Of a stretch of 47,742 nt of DNA, positions 5,342 through 34,631 are shown one piece after another. The notes under the pieces are model-generated. The model was not told the DNA's origin and did not search any database. It saw only the letters and a list, made by a program, of their open reading frames with translations. This DNA is from a virus. The stretch covers positions 1 to 47,742 of the IMG/VR virus record IMGVR_UViG_3300029717_000016, one strand, 5' to 3'. Each line of letters starts with the position of its first letter. The first letter of the stretch is position 1. Both the position numbers and the translations under genes were made by a program.

Positions 5342-6442
5342 CTAGCAACTTTTATTTTTCATTTCCAATTCCGTTGCCAATTTGCGCTTTTTCATCGCTT
5401 CGGTGGTGAAGTAGTCGCAGAAGTCGCTGGAGCGTTTGGCAATATCTTTCTGGGCGAGGTGCGTGTAGATATTGTGCATGGTAGACAAGTCACTCCACCC
5501 TCCGATTTCGGCGGCGATCATTTCCGGAATTTGCAAGTGGTAGGCAAGAGATGCAAAGCTGTGGCGCAGCCCATGCAGATCAACCACGGTGATTCCAGCG
5601 GCGGCGCAGACTTTGCCTAAATTATTGTAGATGGTTTCTGCGCTTGCCTTTACCACGTTTCCGGTCTTCTGCTCCTGCGCTTTCAGCGCCTCTAGAAGCG
5701 GCGGAATGATAGGCACAGAGCGGCGGGACTTCGCCGTTTTGTTTTGTGGCTTCTGCACAAGCCCAGCCGCCCCCATGACGATTGCGCCGCGAACGTGCAT
5801 CACCTTGTTTTCCAAATCTACGTTTGCCCAGTCCATGGCGATCATTTCCGAGCGGCGCAGGGAGGAAAGGCACATCAGATACGGGATTTCAAATCGGTGG
5901 CCTTTTATAGCTTCCACAAACTTATCTATCTCGTCCGGCGTGAGGTATGCCCGTTCGTTGTGTTCCGGGGGATACAGCATCACCTCTGGGCGCGGAGCAC
6001 CGGCGGCGACGATGCAGGCGGAAAAGAACATCCACCCATTTTTGATATACTTCGGGGATTTCCCGGCCTTGTGTTCCTGCCTGATAGCGGCCTGCCATTG
6101 GTCATTGGAGACTGTGAAAATGTTCCGCTTCATCATGCCTAGCAGCATATTCCGCTTGAACTTCTCGTACCCTGCAATGGTGGATGGGGAAAGGAATCCC
6201 TCTTTTGATGCAATGTAGCTTTTGACGGCTTCTTCCAGCGTGATGTCTTTCCCGTCCTTCTTCTCGCGGACTTCCACAAGGCCGTTTTTCAAGGCGAGAT
6301 ATTCGGCCACGCATTCATCATATGTATCTTTCGTAATCGATACGCGGCGATTCTCTATCAATACACGTGTGTGCCACGCCCCAGAGGGGAGCTGCTTAAT
6401 TTTTGGGAGCCTGATTTCCGGCTCATTCTTTCTTTTTGCCAT
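5342..6442 (-). CDS. int: Tyrosine integrase (phage integrase family)
   Basis: LRRSEMIAMDW (R), HGLRHSFAS (HxxR), GWSDLSTMHNIYTH (Tyr). Start moved to M21 (ATG 6442, RBS aggggga) because the longer ORF runs through a terminator. Confidence 0.92.
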   Translation of the reverse strand: MAKRKNEPEIRLPKIKQLPSGAWHTRVLIENRRVSITKDTYDECVAEYLALKNGLVEVREKKDGKDITLEEAVKSYIASKEGFLSPSTIAGYEKFKRNMLLGMMKRNIFTVSNDQWQAAIRQEHKAGKSPKYIKNGWMFFSACIVAAGAPRPEVMLYPPEHNERAYLTPDEIDKFVEAIKGHRFEIPYLMCLSSLRRSEMIAMDWANVDLENKVMHVRGAIVMGAAGLVQKPQNKTAKSRRSVPIIPPLLEALKAQEQKTGNVVKASAETIYNNLGKVCAAAGITVVDLHGLRHSFASLAYHLQIPEMIAAEIGGWSDLSTMHNIYTHLAQKDIAKRSSDFCDYFTTEAMKKRKLATELEMKNKSC

Positions 6443-6469
6443 AAGGAATCCCCCTTTACATGCGGTTAG

Positions 6470-6500
6470 AAAAAATGGCAGACCGCCGAAACGGTCTGCC
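6470..6500 (-). terminator. Rho-independent terminator between toxin gene and integrase
   Basis: Minus strand: ggcagaccg tttcgg cggtctgcc followed by atttttt. Confidence 0.75.
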
Positions 6501-6573
6501 ACTGTTTTTGAGAACTAGGTGGGGCGACGCTCCCACATCTCCTAACAAGGGCGACGGCTGCCCGTTCCGTCTT

Positions 6574-7053
6574 CTAGTCCTTTCTGCTTTTGAGCAACGC
6601 GGCCTTGGTTTCGATAATATTTAACGGACTATGTAGAACCCCACGTTCAACCATGTTCAAGTAGGCAAGCGCTTTTACACGGATGTTTTTCTTTATATTT
6701 TTGTTTTCCAAAACATAAGGCACATTGTTGATATTGTATGGGCGTAGTACATGTTCCGGGAGGACGGGGAACATATCGCAGATAATAAAAGCCCTGTCTT
6801 TTCCGTATATCGGCGCTATGAGGTAATGCACGCAGTTTCCGGAGCCGTGCCGCCTCTCACTTTCATATATCAGCCGCTTGTATTTATCTACGTTGGTACT
6901 CATTGGAACCATCCATAGGACACCGGATTTGTCCGCCATAGCGTAGTAGTGGGGGCGGCTCTCCTGCTTATTCTTCATATAGCGGTTGTTCCCGTATTTT
7001 TCAAAGAAAGCATCACGGATTATGTATATTCCGGAGTCCTGTATCTCTGTCAT
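6574..7053 (-). CDS. Type III TA endoribonuclease-like toxin (ToxN/AbiQ/CptN-like)
   Basis: 159 aa. IYIIRDAFFEKY...ESRPHYYAMADKSGVLWMVPMST...AFIICDMFPVLPE has the layout of ToxN/AbiQ-type toxins. Preceded by repeat RNA plus terminator. Confidence 0.65.
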   Translation of the reverse strand: MTEIQDSGIYIIRDAFFEKYGNNRYMKNKQESRPHYYAMADKSGVLWMVPMSTNVDKYKRLIYESERRHGSGNCVHYLIAPIYGKDRAFIICDMFPVLPEHVLRPYNINNVPYVLENKNIKKNIRVKALAYLNMVERGVLHSPLNIIETKAALLKSRKD

Positions 7054-7065
7054 TTGTTATCCCCC

Positions 7066-7088
7066 AAAAAAGAATGCCGAACCGGCAT
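7066..7088 (-). terminator. Attenuator-type terminator between repeat RNA and toxin gene
   Basis: Minus strand: atgccg gtt cggcat tctttttt, then RBS gggggataacaaATG. Confidence 0.7.
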
Positions 7089-7099
7089 GGCGGCCAGTC

Positions 7100-7193
7100 C
7101 GGCATTTTCAGGCCGGAGTTTTGTATCCCGCTCCCGGCAAGCGGCAGTCTCACAACAAGCCGAAGTCTTATATCCCGCTCTCGGCAGGCGGCA
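7100..7193 (-). ncRNA. Candidate type III antitoxin RNA: 2 x 47-nt tandem repeats
   Basis: Units 7193-7147 and 7146-7100 share tgccgcYtgccgRgagcgggataYaaRactYcggcYtg. No ORF. Confidence 0.6.
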
Positions 7194-7250
7194 AATTAGG
7201 GCGGACGATGAACGTCGTCTATATAGCGTAGGTGGTTATCCTACGTCTAT

Positions 7251-7279
7251 ATTGTACCCCGAGAAATGGAAAATAGCAA
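7251..7279 (-). promoter_or_regulatory. Candidate promoter for repeat RNA/toxin-1
   Basis: Minus strand TTGCTA-N17-TACAAT. Confidence 0.5.
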
Positions 7280-7333
7280 TAGACAGATTGACCAAAAACG
7301 GAAAAATATTTCCGACAATCGTAAAAATTTATC

Positions 7334-7774
7334 TTACCTCTGAATCCATCCGGTTCCCGGGTGCATGATATCGAAGATGAGCCAGCCTACTAGGAAGATT
7401 ACCAGCACCGCAATGGAAATGCCCATAATCAGAATCACCCGCCGATTCTGGCGGTTGAGAATGCTGTAGTGCGTTTGCAGCTGCATGGTGTGCCGCCTGT
7501 AGTCCTCGCTCTGGCGGATGATCGTTGCCTGAAGATATTCCACATATTCCTCCATGGACTGGCCGGGGGCAGGTAGCACAGGGTGTTCCTCCGGGGTGTA
7601 CTGCACGGCGGCCTCAATGCTCTGCACAAGCCTTGCCGTCGGCTCCGTCGCACCATTCAGGGCGCGGCAGATCGTGGCCTTGGATACGCCGCAGGTTTCT
7701 GCCAACTCCTGCTGGGACATGCCCCGCTCCTTCCGCAGGGCTTCCAATTCTGATAAATGCTCGGAAATATTCAT
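7334..7774 (-). CDS. Membrane-anchored XRE-family HTH regulator
   Basis: 146 aa from ATG 7774 (GGAGGC RBS). HTH MSQQELAETCGVSKATICRALNG. C-terminal TM VILIMGISIAVLVIFLVGWLIF. Confidence 0.8.
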   Translation of the reverse strand: MNISEHLSELEALRKERGMSQQELAETCGVSKATICRALNGATEPTARLVQSIEAAVQYTPEEHPVLPAPGQSMEEYVEYLQATIIRQSEDYRRHTMQLQTHYSILNRQNRRVILIMGISIAVLVIFLVGWLIFDIMHPGTGWIQR

Positions 7775-7966
7775 AAAACCGCCTCCAAAAACGGAATGTT
7801 TCACATATGGAACGATTGTTGCGAAAATGGAACGGGAATTTCACATCTGGGGCTTTACGAAACGCCTGTGTGTGGTGTATGGTGGTATTGCAACCGGCAA
7901 GGGACACACGTCGTTACCGGCGGCAAGCCCCGTCACCTTGTGGCACGGGTGGCGGGGCGTATAGCC

Positions 7967-8389
7967 CTAACGAATACGTAATTCGCGGTGAAAGTATTGA
8001 AGGGAACTGCATGAACGGATCATGTCATAATGCTTGTTATCCGGATACTTCACGGCATTCCTGTACGCAATCAGGAATTTCCGCATTCCGTTTGTGATCA
8101 GCGCATCTTTCCCTTTCAATATATTGAATTCTTCCTGCTCGATGGTCGGTGTGCTTGAATTGATAAACCGCCATTCGGAGATGACGACGGCTTTTGAATA
8201 GTCCAGCCCAGCTTCGCCAACGGTAAAGAATGCCCACTTGTGGGGAATATGGTGGCGAAAAGGAATTGCGAATGTAACGCCGTCAACTTTAACCGCCAAA
8301 CAGACATACGGCCTTGTCTGCTTTATCAGAATCTCTTCACAGCCGTGATACCTTTCGTAGAAGACCGGGGACAGGGTGATCAGCTTCAT
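7967..8389 (-). CDS. Type III TA toxin-like protein (TenpN/AbiQ-like)
   Basis: 140 aa. FYERYHGCEEILIKQTRPYVCLAVKVDGVTFAIPFRHHIPH, GLDYSKAVVI, C-terminal SLQYFHREL. Preceded by repeat RNA plus terminator. Confidence 0.65.
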   Translation of the reverse strand: MKLITLSPVFYERYHGCEEILIKQTRPYVCLAVKVDGVTFAIPFRHHIPHKWAFFTVGEAGLDYSKAVVISEWRFINSSTPTIEQEEFNILKGKDALITNGMRKFLIAYRNAVKYPDNKHYDMIRSCSSLQYFHRELRIR

Positions 8390-8401
8390 CTATCTCTCTC
8401 C

Positions 8402-8435
8402 TAAAAAAGACGCCCCCTGTCGAAACAGAGGGCGT
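8402..8435 (-). terminator. Attenuator-type terminator between repeat RNA and toxin-2
   Basis: Minus strand: acgccctctg tttcga cagggggcgt cttttttag, then ggagagagataATG. Confidence 0.75.
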
Positions 8436-8442
8436 GAAAATC

Positions 8443-8542
8443 AATCGAGCTTTCTTTTGATTATGCTGCTCGCGCTCTACGAGCAAATCATCAATTGAGC
8501 TTTCTTTTTCCCGCAGAAGCCTCGCTCTAAGGCTTCATCATC
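8443..8542 (-). ncRNA. Candidate type III antitoxin RNA: 2 x 50-nt tandem repeats with covarying hairpin
   Basis: Units 8542-8493 and 8492-8443. Shared flanks and 7-nt loop tagagcg. Stems GAAGCCT/AGGCTTC versus TTGCTCG/CGAGCAG differ in a compensatory way. Confidence 0.7.
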
Positions 8543-8562
8543 GTGGAATTATCCACACCCTC

Positions 8563-8591
8563 ATTATAAAGCCCGAATATTCAGTTGTCAA
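8563..8591 (-). promoter_or_regulatory. Consensus sigma-70-type promoter for repeat RNA/toxin-2
   Basis: Minus strand TTGACA-N17-TATAAT. Confidence 0.7.
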
Positions 8592-8790
8592 CCACTTTTA
8601 AAAATTTTTTTGAATCAGAATTCAATTGTCATCTTCATTCAAAATCATACCACGTTCGACATATAATTTCAACGAAAAGAAAAATTTTTGTGCATTTTTC
8701 TAATTAGTCCGGTTTATTGGACACATGACGTGCTATTATACGCTACGTAATCAAACAAACGTTTATAAATACATAACGGAGGGACAAAAC

Positions 8791-8940
8791 ATGCAAGCGA
8801 AAGAAGAAATTAAGAAGCCTATCGAAGAGATGACGGAGCAGGAATTAGACAGGGAGATCGGAGAACGCATCCAGCTGCTGACAGATGAAGAAAAGGTAAA
8901 GCTTGTGCGCCTCCTTCTCGAACTGGCAGCATCCGAATGA
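8791..8940 (+). CDS. Small acidic hypothetical protein
   Basis: 49 aa from ATG 8791 (GGAGGG RBS). Longer track ORF trimmed. Confidence 0.5.
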   Translation: MQAKEEIKKPIEEMTEQELDREIGERIQLLTDEEKVKLVRLLLELAASE

Positions 8941-8959
8941 GCGTGTAACCGTTCAATGG

Positions 8960-9343
8960 TTATCTCCCCTCTGTAAGCCCTCTCAGCTGGGCAAGAATTA
9001 ACCGCTTGTGTTCTTCGGATAAACTCTTGACCAGCGCCATGATTTGACTATCCAATTCGGACAGCTCGCCGGAATCGGCGGGCTGTTCTTTTTCGTCGCG
9101 CTCTCTACGAACGTCGTATCCCATAAGCCACGTTTCGCTTACATTCAGTGCCAATCCGAGGATGGTCAACTTTTCCTGCCTCGGCTCAACCTTCCCGCTT
9201 ACGTACTGGCTGAGATCGTTTTTTGCCAACTTAACACCGTATTTCTCGCAAAAAGGTTTGGCAGCTTCAAGAATATCGACTTGTCGAAGCGACCTTTCAT
9301 TCATGATCTGCTTTAATCTTTCACTTGTGCTACTATTTTTCAT
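8960..9343 (-). CDS. cI-like XRE-family repressor
   Basis: 127 aa with N-terminal HTH. Divergent from the cro-like gene across an operator-rich region. Confidence 0.8.
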   Translation of the reverse strand: MKNSSTSERLKQIMNERSLRQVDILEAAKPFCEKYGVKLAKNDLSQYVSGKVEPRQEKLTILGLALNVSETWLMGYDVRRERDEKEQPADSGELSELDSQIMALVKSLSEEHKRLILAQLRGLTEGR

Positions 9344-9365
9344 TTGCTACACCTCCGGTAACTGA

Positions 9366-9394
9366 ATAATAGCACACATTGAACTAAAGCTCAA
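9366..9394 (-). promoter_or_regulatory. Candidate repressor promoter
   Basis: Minus strand TTGAGC-N17-TATTAT. The -35 overlaps a TTGAAC half-site. Confidence 0.5.
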
Positions 9395-9410
9395 GAGCCA
9401 AATAAAAATA

Positions 9411-34137: not shown

Positions 34138-34211
34138 TGCGGCATAGCCAAAAGGTAAGGCACATGGTTTTGACCCATGTAATGGAAGTTCGATTCTTTC
34201 TGCCGCAACCA
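34138..34211 (+). tRNA. tRNA-Gln (anticodon UUG)
   Basis: Manual cloverleaf: TGCGGCA ta GCC aaaaggtaa GGC a CATGG ttTTGac CCATG taat GGAAG ttcgatt CTTTC TGCCGCA a CCA. U1-A72 and the D-arm match bacterial tRNA-Gln. Confidence 0.85.
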
Positions 34212-34555: not shown

Positions 34556-34631
34556 GGGTTGTTAGCTCAGTTGGTAGAGCAGCGGACTGTTAATCCGCAG
34601 GTCACAGGATCGAAGCCTGTACAGCCCTCCA
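34556..34631 (+). tRNA. tRNA-Asn (anticodon GUU)
   Basis: GGGTTGT ta GCTC agttggta GAGC a GCGGA ctGTTaa TCCGC aggtc ACAGG atcgaag CCTGT ACAGCCC t CCA. Confidence 0.85.

Follow-up and report, generated by a model that had tools for sequence, protein, structure and literature searches.

The virus record IMGVR_UViG_3300029717_000016 of IMG/VR, whose complete stretch of 47,742 nucleotides (nt) is hereafter called the window, carries on its minus strand between positions 8591 and 7967 a promoter, a leader hairpin, two tandem RNA units, an intrinsic terminator and an open reading frame (ORF) coding for a protein of 140 amino acids (aa). The coordinates, all read on the minus strand, are listed in Table 1. 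An initial annotation of the window had described this region as resembling a toxin-antitoxin (TA) system of type III, the second of two in close vicinity. We regard the locus, together with the mechanism proposed for it below, as very probably an intact tenpIN type III TA module (toxin TenpN, antitoxin RNA TenpI) that a temperate tailed prophage carries in its lysogeny module.

The 140-aa ORF scores 124.2 bits (E 4.4e-36) with the NCBIfam equivalog profile NF047358 (TenpIN), the cutoff of which is 90, its residues 6-137 being aligned with positions 1-141 of the 141 in the profile, and also matches PHROG 8049. NCBIfam returns TenpIN alone, the ORF does not match the ToxN family profile (toxIN, ToxN/AbiQ toxins), and the match to the CptN family profile NF047359 falls not on it but on the neighbouring ORF 6574-7053, to which it has no detectable sequence similarity (BLASTP E 0.23). 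Both the lack of relatedness between the two toxins and the assignment of the 140-aa product to TenpN-type type III toxins had been proposed initially and are borne out by these searches. A relationship of the toxin to AbiQ did not emerge, no search aimed at it having been made. A total of 111 homologues were found, and all 15 invariant columns of an alignment of 42 of these sequences are present in the window toxin. An AlphaFold2 model based on the 42 homologues (predicted local distance difference test 93.9, predicted template modelling score 0.89) has as its best matches in the PDB the ToxN chains 2xd0_A (template modelling (TM) score 0.55) and 4ato_A (TM 0.53), both with a probability of 1.00, followed by many MazF chains. 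The ORF product is a TenpN toxin with a ToxN/MazF-like endoribonuclease fold as predicted by this model. When genome contigs were scanned with the single toxin protein, the only hit was a 1-kb contig of a metagenome-assembled genome labelled as Bacteroidaceae and probably mis-binned, and BLASTN of the region 7900-8700 gave no match in the phage collection.

The promoter, a perfect sigma-70 site, had been recognised before as TTGACA-N17-TATAAT at 8591-8563, and the consensus scan agrees in full. A TTGACA-type -35 hexamer is seen upstream of many homologous arrays, TATAAT followed by RRGGGTG is conserved across the window clade, and a terminator occupies the same position in almost all homologous loci; in the window its stem has 11 pairs, seven of which are G-C, a loop of 4 nt and the tail CTTTTTT (consensus scan). 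The terminator, the ribosome binding site (RBS) and the ORF with its quoted motifs all lie where the initial annotation had placed them. The leader hairpin had been missed, and variants of it (GUGGA/UCCAC, GCAGG/CCUGC, CAAGG/CCUUG, UAAGG/CCUUA, GCGG/CCGC) stand at the same site in homologues, as judged by eye only, because the MAFFT alignment of the leader hairpins misplaces gaps. The hairpin probably forms the 5' end of the transcript or lies near it.

The two units (U1, promoter-proximal, and U2, toxin-proximal) have in common the start GAUGAU, the loop UAGAGCG and the end AAAGAAAGCUCRAUU. Their first stems are GAAGCCU/AGGCUUC in U1 and UUGCUCG/CGAGCAG in U2, the outermost pair of the latter being U.G, so six of seven pairs differ with pairing kept throughout, as had been noted in the initial annotation; an additional U.G closing pair extends stem 1 to 8 bp. 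The description as two exact 50-nt repeats holds for the period and the coordinates but not for the sequences, which are identical at 30 of 50 positions (60%). The pair is not reported by Tandem Repeats Finder, and a repeat search detects only the common 19-nt 3' block, spaced 50 nt. The GAU left after U2 fits the copy range of 1.9-3.0 known for tenpIN (PMC3401426) and may be the 3' processing site of U2.

Table 1 Features of the putative tenpIN locus of the window
Feature	Coordinates	Strand	Remarks
-35 hexamer TTGACA	8586..8591	-	best promoter-like site in 6400-9400; 12/12 consensus together with -10
-10 hexamer TATAAT	8563..8568	-	spacer of 17 from TTGACA; consensus scan
GAGGGTG directly after -10	8562-8556	-	conserved
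Leader hairpin GUGGA-UAAU-UCCAC	8543..8556	-	directly 5' of unit 1; minimum free energy fold prediction
Antitoxin unit 1 (U1 type)	8493..8542	-	exactly 50 nt; linker UGCGGGAAAAAGAAA
U1 stem 1	8536-8529 with 8523-8516	-	7-8 bp
U1 pseudoknot stem 2	GAGC 8527-8524 with GCUC 8500-8497	-	
Antitoxin unit 2 (U2 type)	8443..8492	-	exactly 50 nt; linker CAUAAUCAAAAGAAA; matches Rfam 6A RNA
U2 stem 1	8486-8479 with 8473-8466	-	7-8 bp
U2 pseudoknot stem 2	GAGC 8477-8474 with GCUC 8450-8447	-	
GAU, partial third repeat start	8440..8442	-	relatives mostly have GAUGA here
Intrinsic terminator	8403..8435	-	stem-loop 8435-8410, T-run 8408-8403
RBS AGGAG	8398..8402	-	8 nt ahead of ATG; read from sequence
tenpN toxin gene	7967..8389	-	ATG 8389; 140 aa; predicted endoribonuclease

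Pseudoknot fold of the units

The folding energy of the whole 168-nt leader is exceptional (z -4.0, 0/200 shuffles). Against a selected fold, it has to be said that the energies of the single units are unremarkable (z -0.8 and -0.95), and the case for selection therefore rests on the comparison between loci. Loci of TenpN homologues with 32-99% identity were taken from genome, metagenome and viral collections, and about 70 of them were compared. Their upstream regions are almost all alike, consisting of a promoter, two units of about 50 nt, a terminator and the toxin gene. A sequence-only model, R1, was built from 26 units so that the alignment would not be fitted to the structure. In the window it matches U1 (34.9 bits, E 6e-10) and U2 (51.6 bits) and nothing else. 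Of the 72 sources searched, 69 contain units recognised by R1, 130 in total, each of which is placed directly upstream of a TenpN gene.

The covariation alignment comprised 108 distinct units and 1265 cells, covering the 8 pairs of stem 1 and the 4 pairs of stem 2, and was compared with 500 shuffles. Standard pairs are formed in 98.2% of the cells versus 77.0% in shuffles (0/500) and 27-44% in slid controls, and both sides are changed in 266 cells versus 66 in shuffles (0/500), these being counts of cells from phylogenetically related loci and not of independent events. Compensatory change is found in all 8 pairs of stem 1. The second helix, in which loop bases G16-C19 pair with GCUC 23 nt further on, had no part in building R1 and is paired in 100% of cells, in every distinct unit, with the variants GAGC/GCUC, GAAC/GUUC, GGGC/GCCC and, once, GGUC/GACC. 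The A-tract columns of the alignment are invariant.

Since both helices covary across loci, the units are to be seen as H-type pseudoknots and not as plain hairpins, each having a first loop that is very short and a second that is A-rich and 15 nt long, as deduced from the aligned sequences. The proposal that a selected RNA fold and not a slipped duplication is present was right, as covariation of the stem is seen between homologous loci and not only inside the one array, and the suggested alignment of homologous loci shows the repeats to be present there; the unit fold given at that time had stem 1 right but lacked the GAGC/GCUC helix.

Two unlike unit types

Comparison of the two units within each of 60 distinct arrays shows a difference in stem 1 only in 24 arrays, in stem 2 only in 20, in both in 12 and in neither in 4, so 56 of the 60 differ in at least one helix, and the window array with its 60% identity stands at the diverged end. 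The initial annotation had called diverged repeats in one array unusual, which is true in comparison with ToxI but not within tenpIN, where they have been described (PMC12283969). TenpN loci of the large L042-L080 clade (Ga0268262, Ga0099364, JGI24698 and similar contigs; L numbers denote the compared stretches), at 37-42% identity, show the opposite of the window pattern of unlike first and identical second stems: their units share the stem 1 GUGAUUG/CAAUCAC and have as stem 2 GAAC/GUUC in unit 1 and GGGC/GCCC in unit 2.

Within the window clade (17 distinct loci), the mean nucleotide identity is 60.8% for toxin genes, 82.3% for U1-U1, 92.6% for U2-U2 and 66.4% for U1-U2, and four-fold degenerate sites of the toxin genes are 29% identical and saturated (15 of the 17 loci). 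The linker positions 29-35 have an identity of 100% among U2 (CAUAAUC), 77% among U1 (CGCGGGA-like) and 12% between the types (15 loci), while stem-1 bases are conserved to 82% in U2 versus 62% in U1. Because the type-specific linkers are conserved while the four-fold degenerate sites are saturated, U1 and U2 are separate conserved lineages, both of them under purifying selection for different sequences. Pure neutral drift of the stems under structural constraint was considered and rejected, as the U2 stems and both linkers lie far above the 29% of the synonymous sites. U2 is the more constrained unit and can stand alone, U1 being its more variable partner.

These differences also bear on the suggestion that U2 is the sole working antitoxin, with U1 being an accessory or decaying copy which would do no more for U2 than offer a spacer, 5' protection or the site of 5' processing. 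The far stronger conservation of U2 agrees with this, as do three further observations: it is U2 and not U1 that is recognised by Rfam 6A in the window, all solitary units in viral contigs are of the U2 type (see below), and arrays with two identical units (L020/L088, L055, L067, L078, L076) consist, where they can be typed, of two U2-type units and never of two U1-type units, L076 having a repeat type of its own. Such arrays also count against unlike units being needed for the module, and it follows from them that unlike units are not strictly required. On the other hand, in an alignment of U1 units alone 95.1% of the cells are paired versus 75.1% in shuffles, both-side changes number 72 versus 19, and stem 2 is paired in 100%. 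The loop, the A-tract and the tail are retained in U1 as well, and the conservation of its own linker far above the neutral sites is not what would be expected of a decaying copy. As both helices are kept by compensatory change in U1 alone, U1 is not a decaying copy, and we consider it unlikely that U2 works by itself.

The asymmetry of the array could be explained in several ways, among them an asymmetric complex, different affinities of the two units, avoided mispairing or avoided repeat deletion, and a U1 serving mainly the processing of U2. That unlike units prevent cross-pairing between units is a speculation which fits the 56 of 60 arrays, these representing only a few independent lineages, each of which blocks one of the two possible mispairings. 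A more far-reaching reading, put forward here tentatively and with well under even confidence, is that U1 and U2 are obligate, non-equivalent partners in an asymmetric ribonucleoprotein with TenpN, that Rfam 6A is the TenpI antitoxin and that solitary 6A units of phages are anti-TenpN decoys or anti-addiction elements. U2 would then be the constrained core which binds TenpN sequence-specifically and U1 the faster-evolving unit with a conserved linker of its own, assembled for example into a ring of two TenpN, one U1 and one U2.

Rfam 6A, units without a toxin and the prophage context

An Rfam scan of 6400-9400 matched the RF02925 family '6A' to U2 at 8439-8490 (-) over its full length (1-52) with 60.7 bits versus a gathering score of 41.2 (E 5e-11). 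No 6A match to U1 (8493-8542) was found at E <= 10 in a 241-nt search; U1 represents a unit type of its own, akin to that of U2. In 17 of 20 related loci, 6A is assigned to the toxin-proximal unit, each time directly upstream of a TenpN gene, and in three loci to both units. RF02925 is typed by Rfam as 'Gene; sRNA' and not as an antitoxin, its model holds the hairpin only, and no link between 6A and type III TA systems was found in the literature searched. We take the 6A motif to originate from Weinberg et al. 2017, in a supplement.

Viral contigs were searched with the pattern TAGAGCG-N14-AAAAGAAAGCTC, which resulted in 34 stretches. A TenpN gene lies within 800 nt downstream in 19 of them, and none was detected in the remaining 15, three of which have less than 460 nt downstream; most of these 15 carry one unit, always of the U2 type. 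Recognisable units stand upstream of TenpN in 71 of the 72 sources searched. The toxin thus almost never occurs without the RNA while the RNA often occurs without the toxin, as would be expected of a toxin-antitoxin pair.

Solitary U2-type (6A-like) units with no TenpN gene detected in up to 800 nt downstream (a shorter distance in L127) are present in L101, L104, L118, L119, L121 and L127. The unit of L104 (10562-10609) is located directly upstream of the small and large terminase genes and is one of a group so placed, and the unit of L121 (6823-6871) abuts a phage tRNA-Trp. By analogy, such units could be phage-encoded antitoxin decoys like the pseudo-ToxI of phage PhiTE, reportedly a phage-borne antitoxin RNA without a toxin that neutralises a host type III toxin; this likeness concerns the related viral contigs and not the window.

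L115 (1005-1173) matches window 8568-8400 with 90% identity from the -10 hexamer over the leader and both units, U1 and U2, to the terminator, with no toxin gene after it, so a complete antitoxin array is present without a toxin. In a sister prophage (L105/L096), which is 96.8% identical to the window from the toxin stop codon at 7967 to 6282, only U2 is retained with 98% identity (L105 6822-7983 versus window 8584-7968). Where the window has its promoter, leader and U1, the sister prophage has an AbiD/F-like gene that comes with a separate promoter and leader hairpin, and about 100 nt stand in place of the terminator and tenpN, homology resuming exactly at the toxin stop codon. From the sequences, this looks like a cassette exchange at a defence hotspot which has left an orphan antitoxin behind.

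It might be asked whether the units are a cis-acting 5' leader, i.e. an attenuator, a riboswitch-like element or a protein-binding site controlling read-through, and not a trans-acting antitoxin. They do lie between promoter and terminator directly upstream of the ORF, and the segment GAGGGUGUG (8562-8554), which directly follows the -10 hexamer, could form 9 consecutive pairs with CACGCCCUC (8436-8428) at the 5' arm of the terminator, a possible antiterminator; complementarity of 8-9 pairs is likewise seen in L001, L005, L023 and L030. However, the same RNA unit occurs alone with no TenpN detected downstream, for example beside the phage tRNA-Trp and upstream of terminase genes mentioned above, and the family of the downstream protein has been shown experimentally to be a toxin inhibited by the upstream repeat RNA (PMC3401426). 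In addition, the complementarity of leader and terminator averages 5.5 consecutive pairs within a locus versus 4.96 between loci (24 loci), and the leader segment may lie mostly upstream of the transcription start, so the antiterminator made of GAGGGUG and the terminator was rejected as unsupported. Alternatively, GAGGGUGUG may serve as a GGG discriminator for the promoter. A purely cis-acting role is therefore considered highly improbable. Lastly, a chance or slipped duplication with fortuitous hairpins next to an unrelated prophage gene, to which the unexceptional energies of single units (z about -0.8 to -1.0) and the silence of Tandem Repeats Finder might point, is already refuted by the same layout upstream of about 70 TenpN homologues, the strong covariation of both helices, the independent Rfam match to U2 and an ORF scoring above the curated TenpIN cutoff.

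The proteins coded for by the window include an integrase, helix-turn-helix (HTH) regulators, a replication initiator, a large terminase, a portal protein, a major head protein and a tape measure protein, and the window is a temperate tailed prophage. The TenpIN module is located in the lysogeny region between the integrase and the cI-like repressor genes, on the same strand as both, and would therefore be expressed in the lysogen. The genes for tRNA Gln-TTG (34138-34211) and Asn-GTT (34556-34631), both on the plus strand, lie inside the structural module of the prophage.

The other type III locus ('locus 1' of the initial annotation), of the CptIN family, occupies window 6574-7330 (-), 1 kb from TenpIN, so two different type III systems are found within 2 kb. 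Its CptN-type toxin ORF at 6574-7053 (-) matches NF047359 with 110 bits and has no Pfam or PADLOC match. It is accompanied by a terminator at 7106-7073, a weak promoter-like site at 7279-7251 and two repeats (7109-7146 and 7156-7193) which are 47 nt apart and 84% identical. Between the two TA loci there is a gene (7334-7804, -) coding for a 156-aa protein with an N-terminal XRE-type HTH domain (PF01381, E 7e-12) and a hydrophobic C-terminal segment, which is conserved in the sister prophage L105 and is possibly a regulator anchored in the membrane.

A skipping-rope RNA (Rfam RF02924) was detected directly 3' of the CptN-type ORF at 6511-6581 (-) with 58.8 bits versus a gathering score of 36.7. 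It is located just upstream of the integrase gene and has a terminator after it (6503-6474), and L030 has another skipping-rope RNA (1937-2015, +) immediately behind its TenpN gene. This motif was described as having an unknown function, terminators after it and an association with particular nearby proteins (Weinberg 2017, PMC5737381); it may be connected with type III toxin genes or with the integration modules of prophages. About 900 nt upstream of another tenpIN locus, in L026 (333-594, +), there is a FuFi-1 RNA (RF02986, 78.6 bits), another of Weinberg's 'motifs with 3' terminators'.

Proposed mechanism and comparison with known systems

TenpN homology, a predicted ToxN/Kid(MazF)-like fold, tandem repeats, a terminator and promoter, and a pseudoknot with an A-stretch are all found at the locus, in keeping with a tenpIN module, for which the following mechanism is proposed. 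A strong constitutive promoter would give rise to the leader hairpin and the two RNA units, and the intrinsic terminator would end most transcripts, so that the RNA is in excess over toxin mRNA, with read-through transcripts providing TenpN, the putative ToxN/MazF-fold endoribonuclease. Each unit would fold into an H-type pseudoknot in which stem 1 has 7-8 bp, the GAGC of the loop pairs with GCUC 23 nt on and the A-rich linker of 15 nt would probably be found in the minor groove of stem 1. TenpN would most likely cleave the precursor at the conserved junctions, between GCUCRAUU of one unit and GAUGAU of the next, and stay on the products as an inactive ribonucleoprotein. Should the supply of antitoxin RNA fail, for example upon infection by another phage, free TenpN would cleave RNA, which would lead to an aborted infection or to the death of cells losing the prophage. 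The most likely role by analogy is the exclusion of other phages by abortive infection or, alternatively, prophage stabilisation.

Apart from the points raised above on relatedness of the loci and identical-unit arrays, several others weigh against this reading. Toxicity, neutralisation, cleavage sites, read-through and phage resistance are inferred, with ToxIN, CptIN and the TenpIN of Photorhabdus luminescens as the source for toxicity, RNA processing, inhibition by binding and phage defence. The toxin model resembles ToxN to a moderate degree (TM about 0.55, Foldseek E 3e-3), neither Pfam (no family at E <= 1) nor PADLOC has any model matching the toxin, a profile search of PDB sequences gave no relative of TenpN, and a solved TenpIN complex was found neither there nor in the literature searched. 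Finally, the window array has GAUUUU after U2 where relatives have GAUGA, and the release of U2 could be impaired if GAUGA is needed for 3' processing.

As to annotation, the gain is one more prophage-borne TenpIN defence or addiction module standing beside a CptIN-type system, and the comparative data are more useful than the locus itself. The tenpIN family, its repeats of about 50 nt and the occurrence of unlike repeats were known already, and the locus is a further member; the new elements are the counted covariation of both helices, the distinct and separately selected units, the 6A identification and the toxin-less phage copies. The covariation supports the TenpI pseudoknot including its second helix, the Rfam family 6A, so far typed as sRNA only, would gain a concrete role, and the toxin-less phage copies could be counter-defence decoys.

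The tenpIN family was described by Blower et al. (2012) as having a mean repeat length of 50.9 nt and 2.2 copies, with ranges of 39-57 nt and 1.9-3.0 copies (Table 2 in PMC3401426). In E. coli, the TenpIN of P. luminescens TT01 aborts coliphage infection, and its toxin is neutralised by the full repeat array (PMC3401426). The window locus shares with it the toxin family NF047358 and the order of promoter, about two tandem repeats of about 50 nt, terminator and toxin; it differs in being carried by a prophage. The toxin of 140 aa is at the short end of the family, the mean of which is 164 aa. The host of the window is probably a gut Clostridia-type bacterium, homologues being named as Oscillospiraceae and Lachnospiraceae.

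Nadig, Sandhya and Singh (2025, PMC12283969) reported tenpIN systems of E. coli cluster 1, Klebsiella pneumoniae and viral genomes in which the repeats are not identical, as well as tenpIN in Caudoviricetes and prophage genomes of human microbiomes (gut, oral), with no mention of Rfam. In their account, a first stem, a stretch of conserved A and a proposed second stem make up an H-type pseudoknot, the stems being derived from prediction and manual curation, and repeats up to 35% different are hard to find for Tandem Repeats Finder. The window repeats differ by 40%, and the helices, which are prediction-based in that study, are supported here by counted covariation over 108 distinct units, an addition to what is known of tenpIN. 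The same authors leave open whether both repeats work (PMC12283969). Unlike in their account, the two units stand out here as separately conserved lineages, and the purifying selection acting on both, for different sequences, bears on this question.

The CptIN of Eubacterium rectale (Rao et al. 2015, PMC4627078; PDB 4RMO) has an antitoxin with an H-type pseudoknot, in which the minor groove of stem 1 holds the A-rich loop as an A-minor twist; the 45-nt CptI repeats hardly differ from each other, and one processed repeat suffices for full antitoxicity (PMC4627078). A very short first loop, a long A-rich loop and two genetic repeats are common to CptI and the window units, while the toxins belong to different families. 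By analogy, CptIN is likely the model for the RNA ends occupying the toxin active sites in a closed ring.

The folds closest to the toxin model among those solved are the ToxIN of Pectobacterium atrosepticum and of Bacillus thuringiensis (PDB 2xd0, 4ato), and the logic of a toxin which is inhibited by the products it makes from its own repeat RNA, and which causes abortive infection, would be the same. The resemblance to ToxN is at the fold level only, with about 14% sequence identity and no Pfam ToxN match. The proposed assembly of two TenpN with one U1 and one U2 would be unlike the symmetric 3:3 ToxIN and 2:2 CptIN complexes, and where ToxI consists of 5.5 repeats of 36 nt that are almost identical, assembling into a 3:3 triangle, the window has two unlike 50-nt units.

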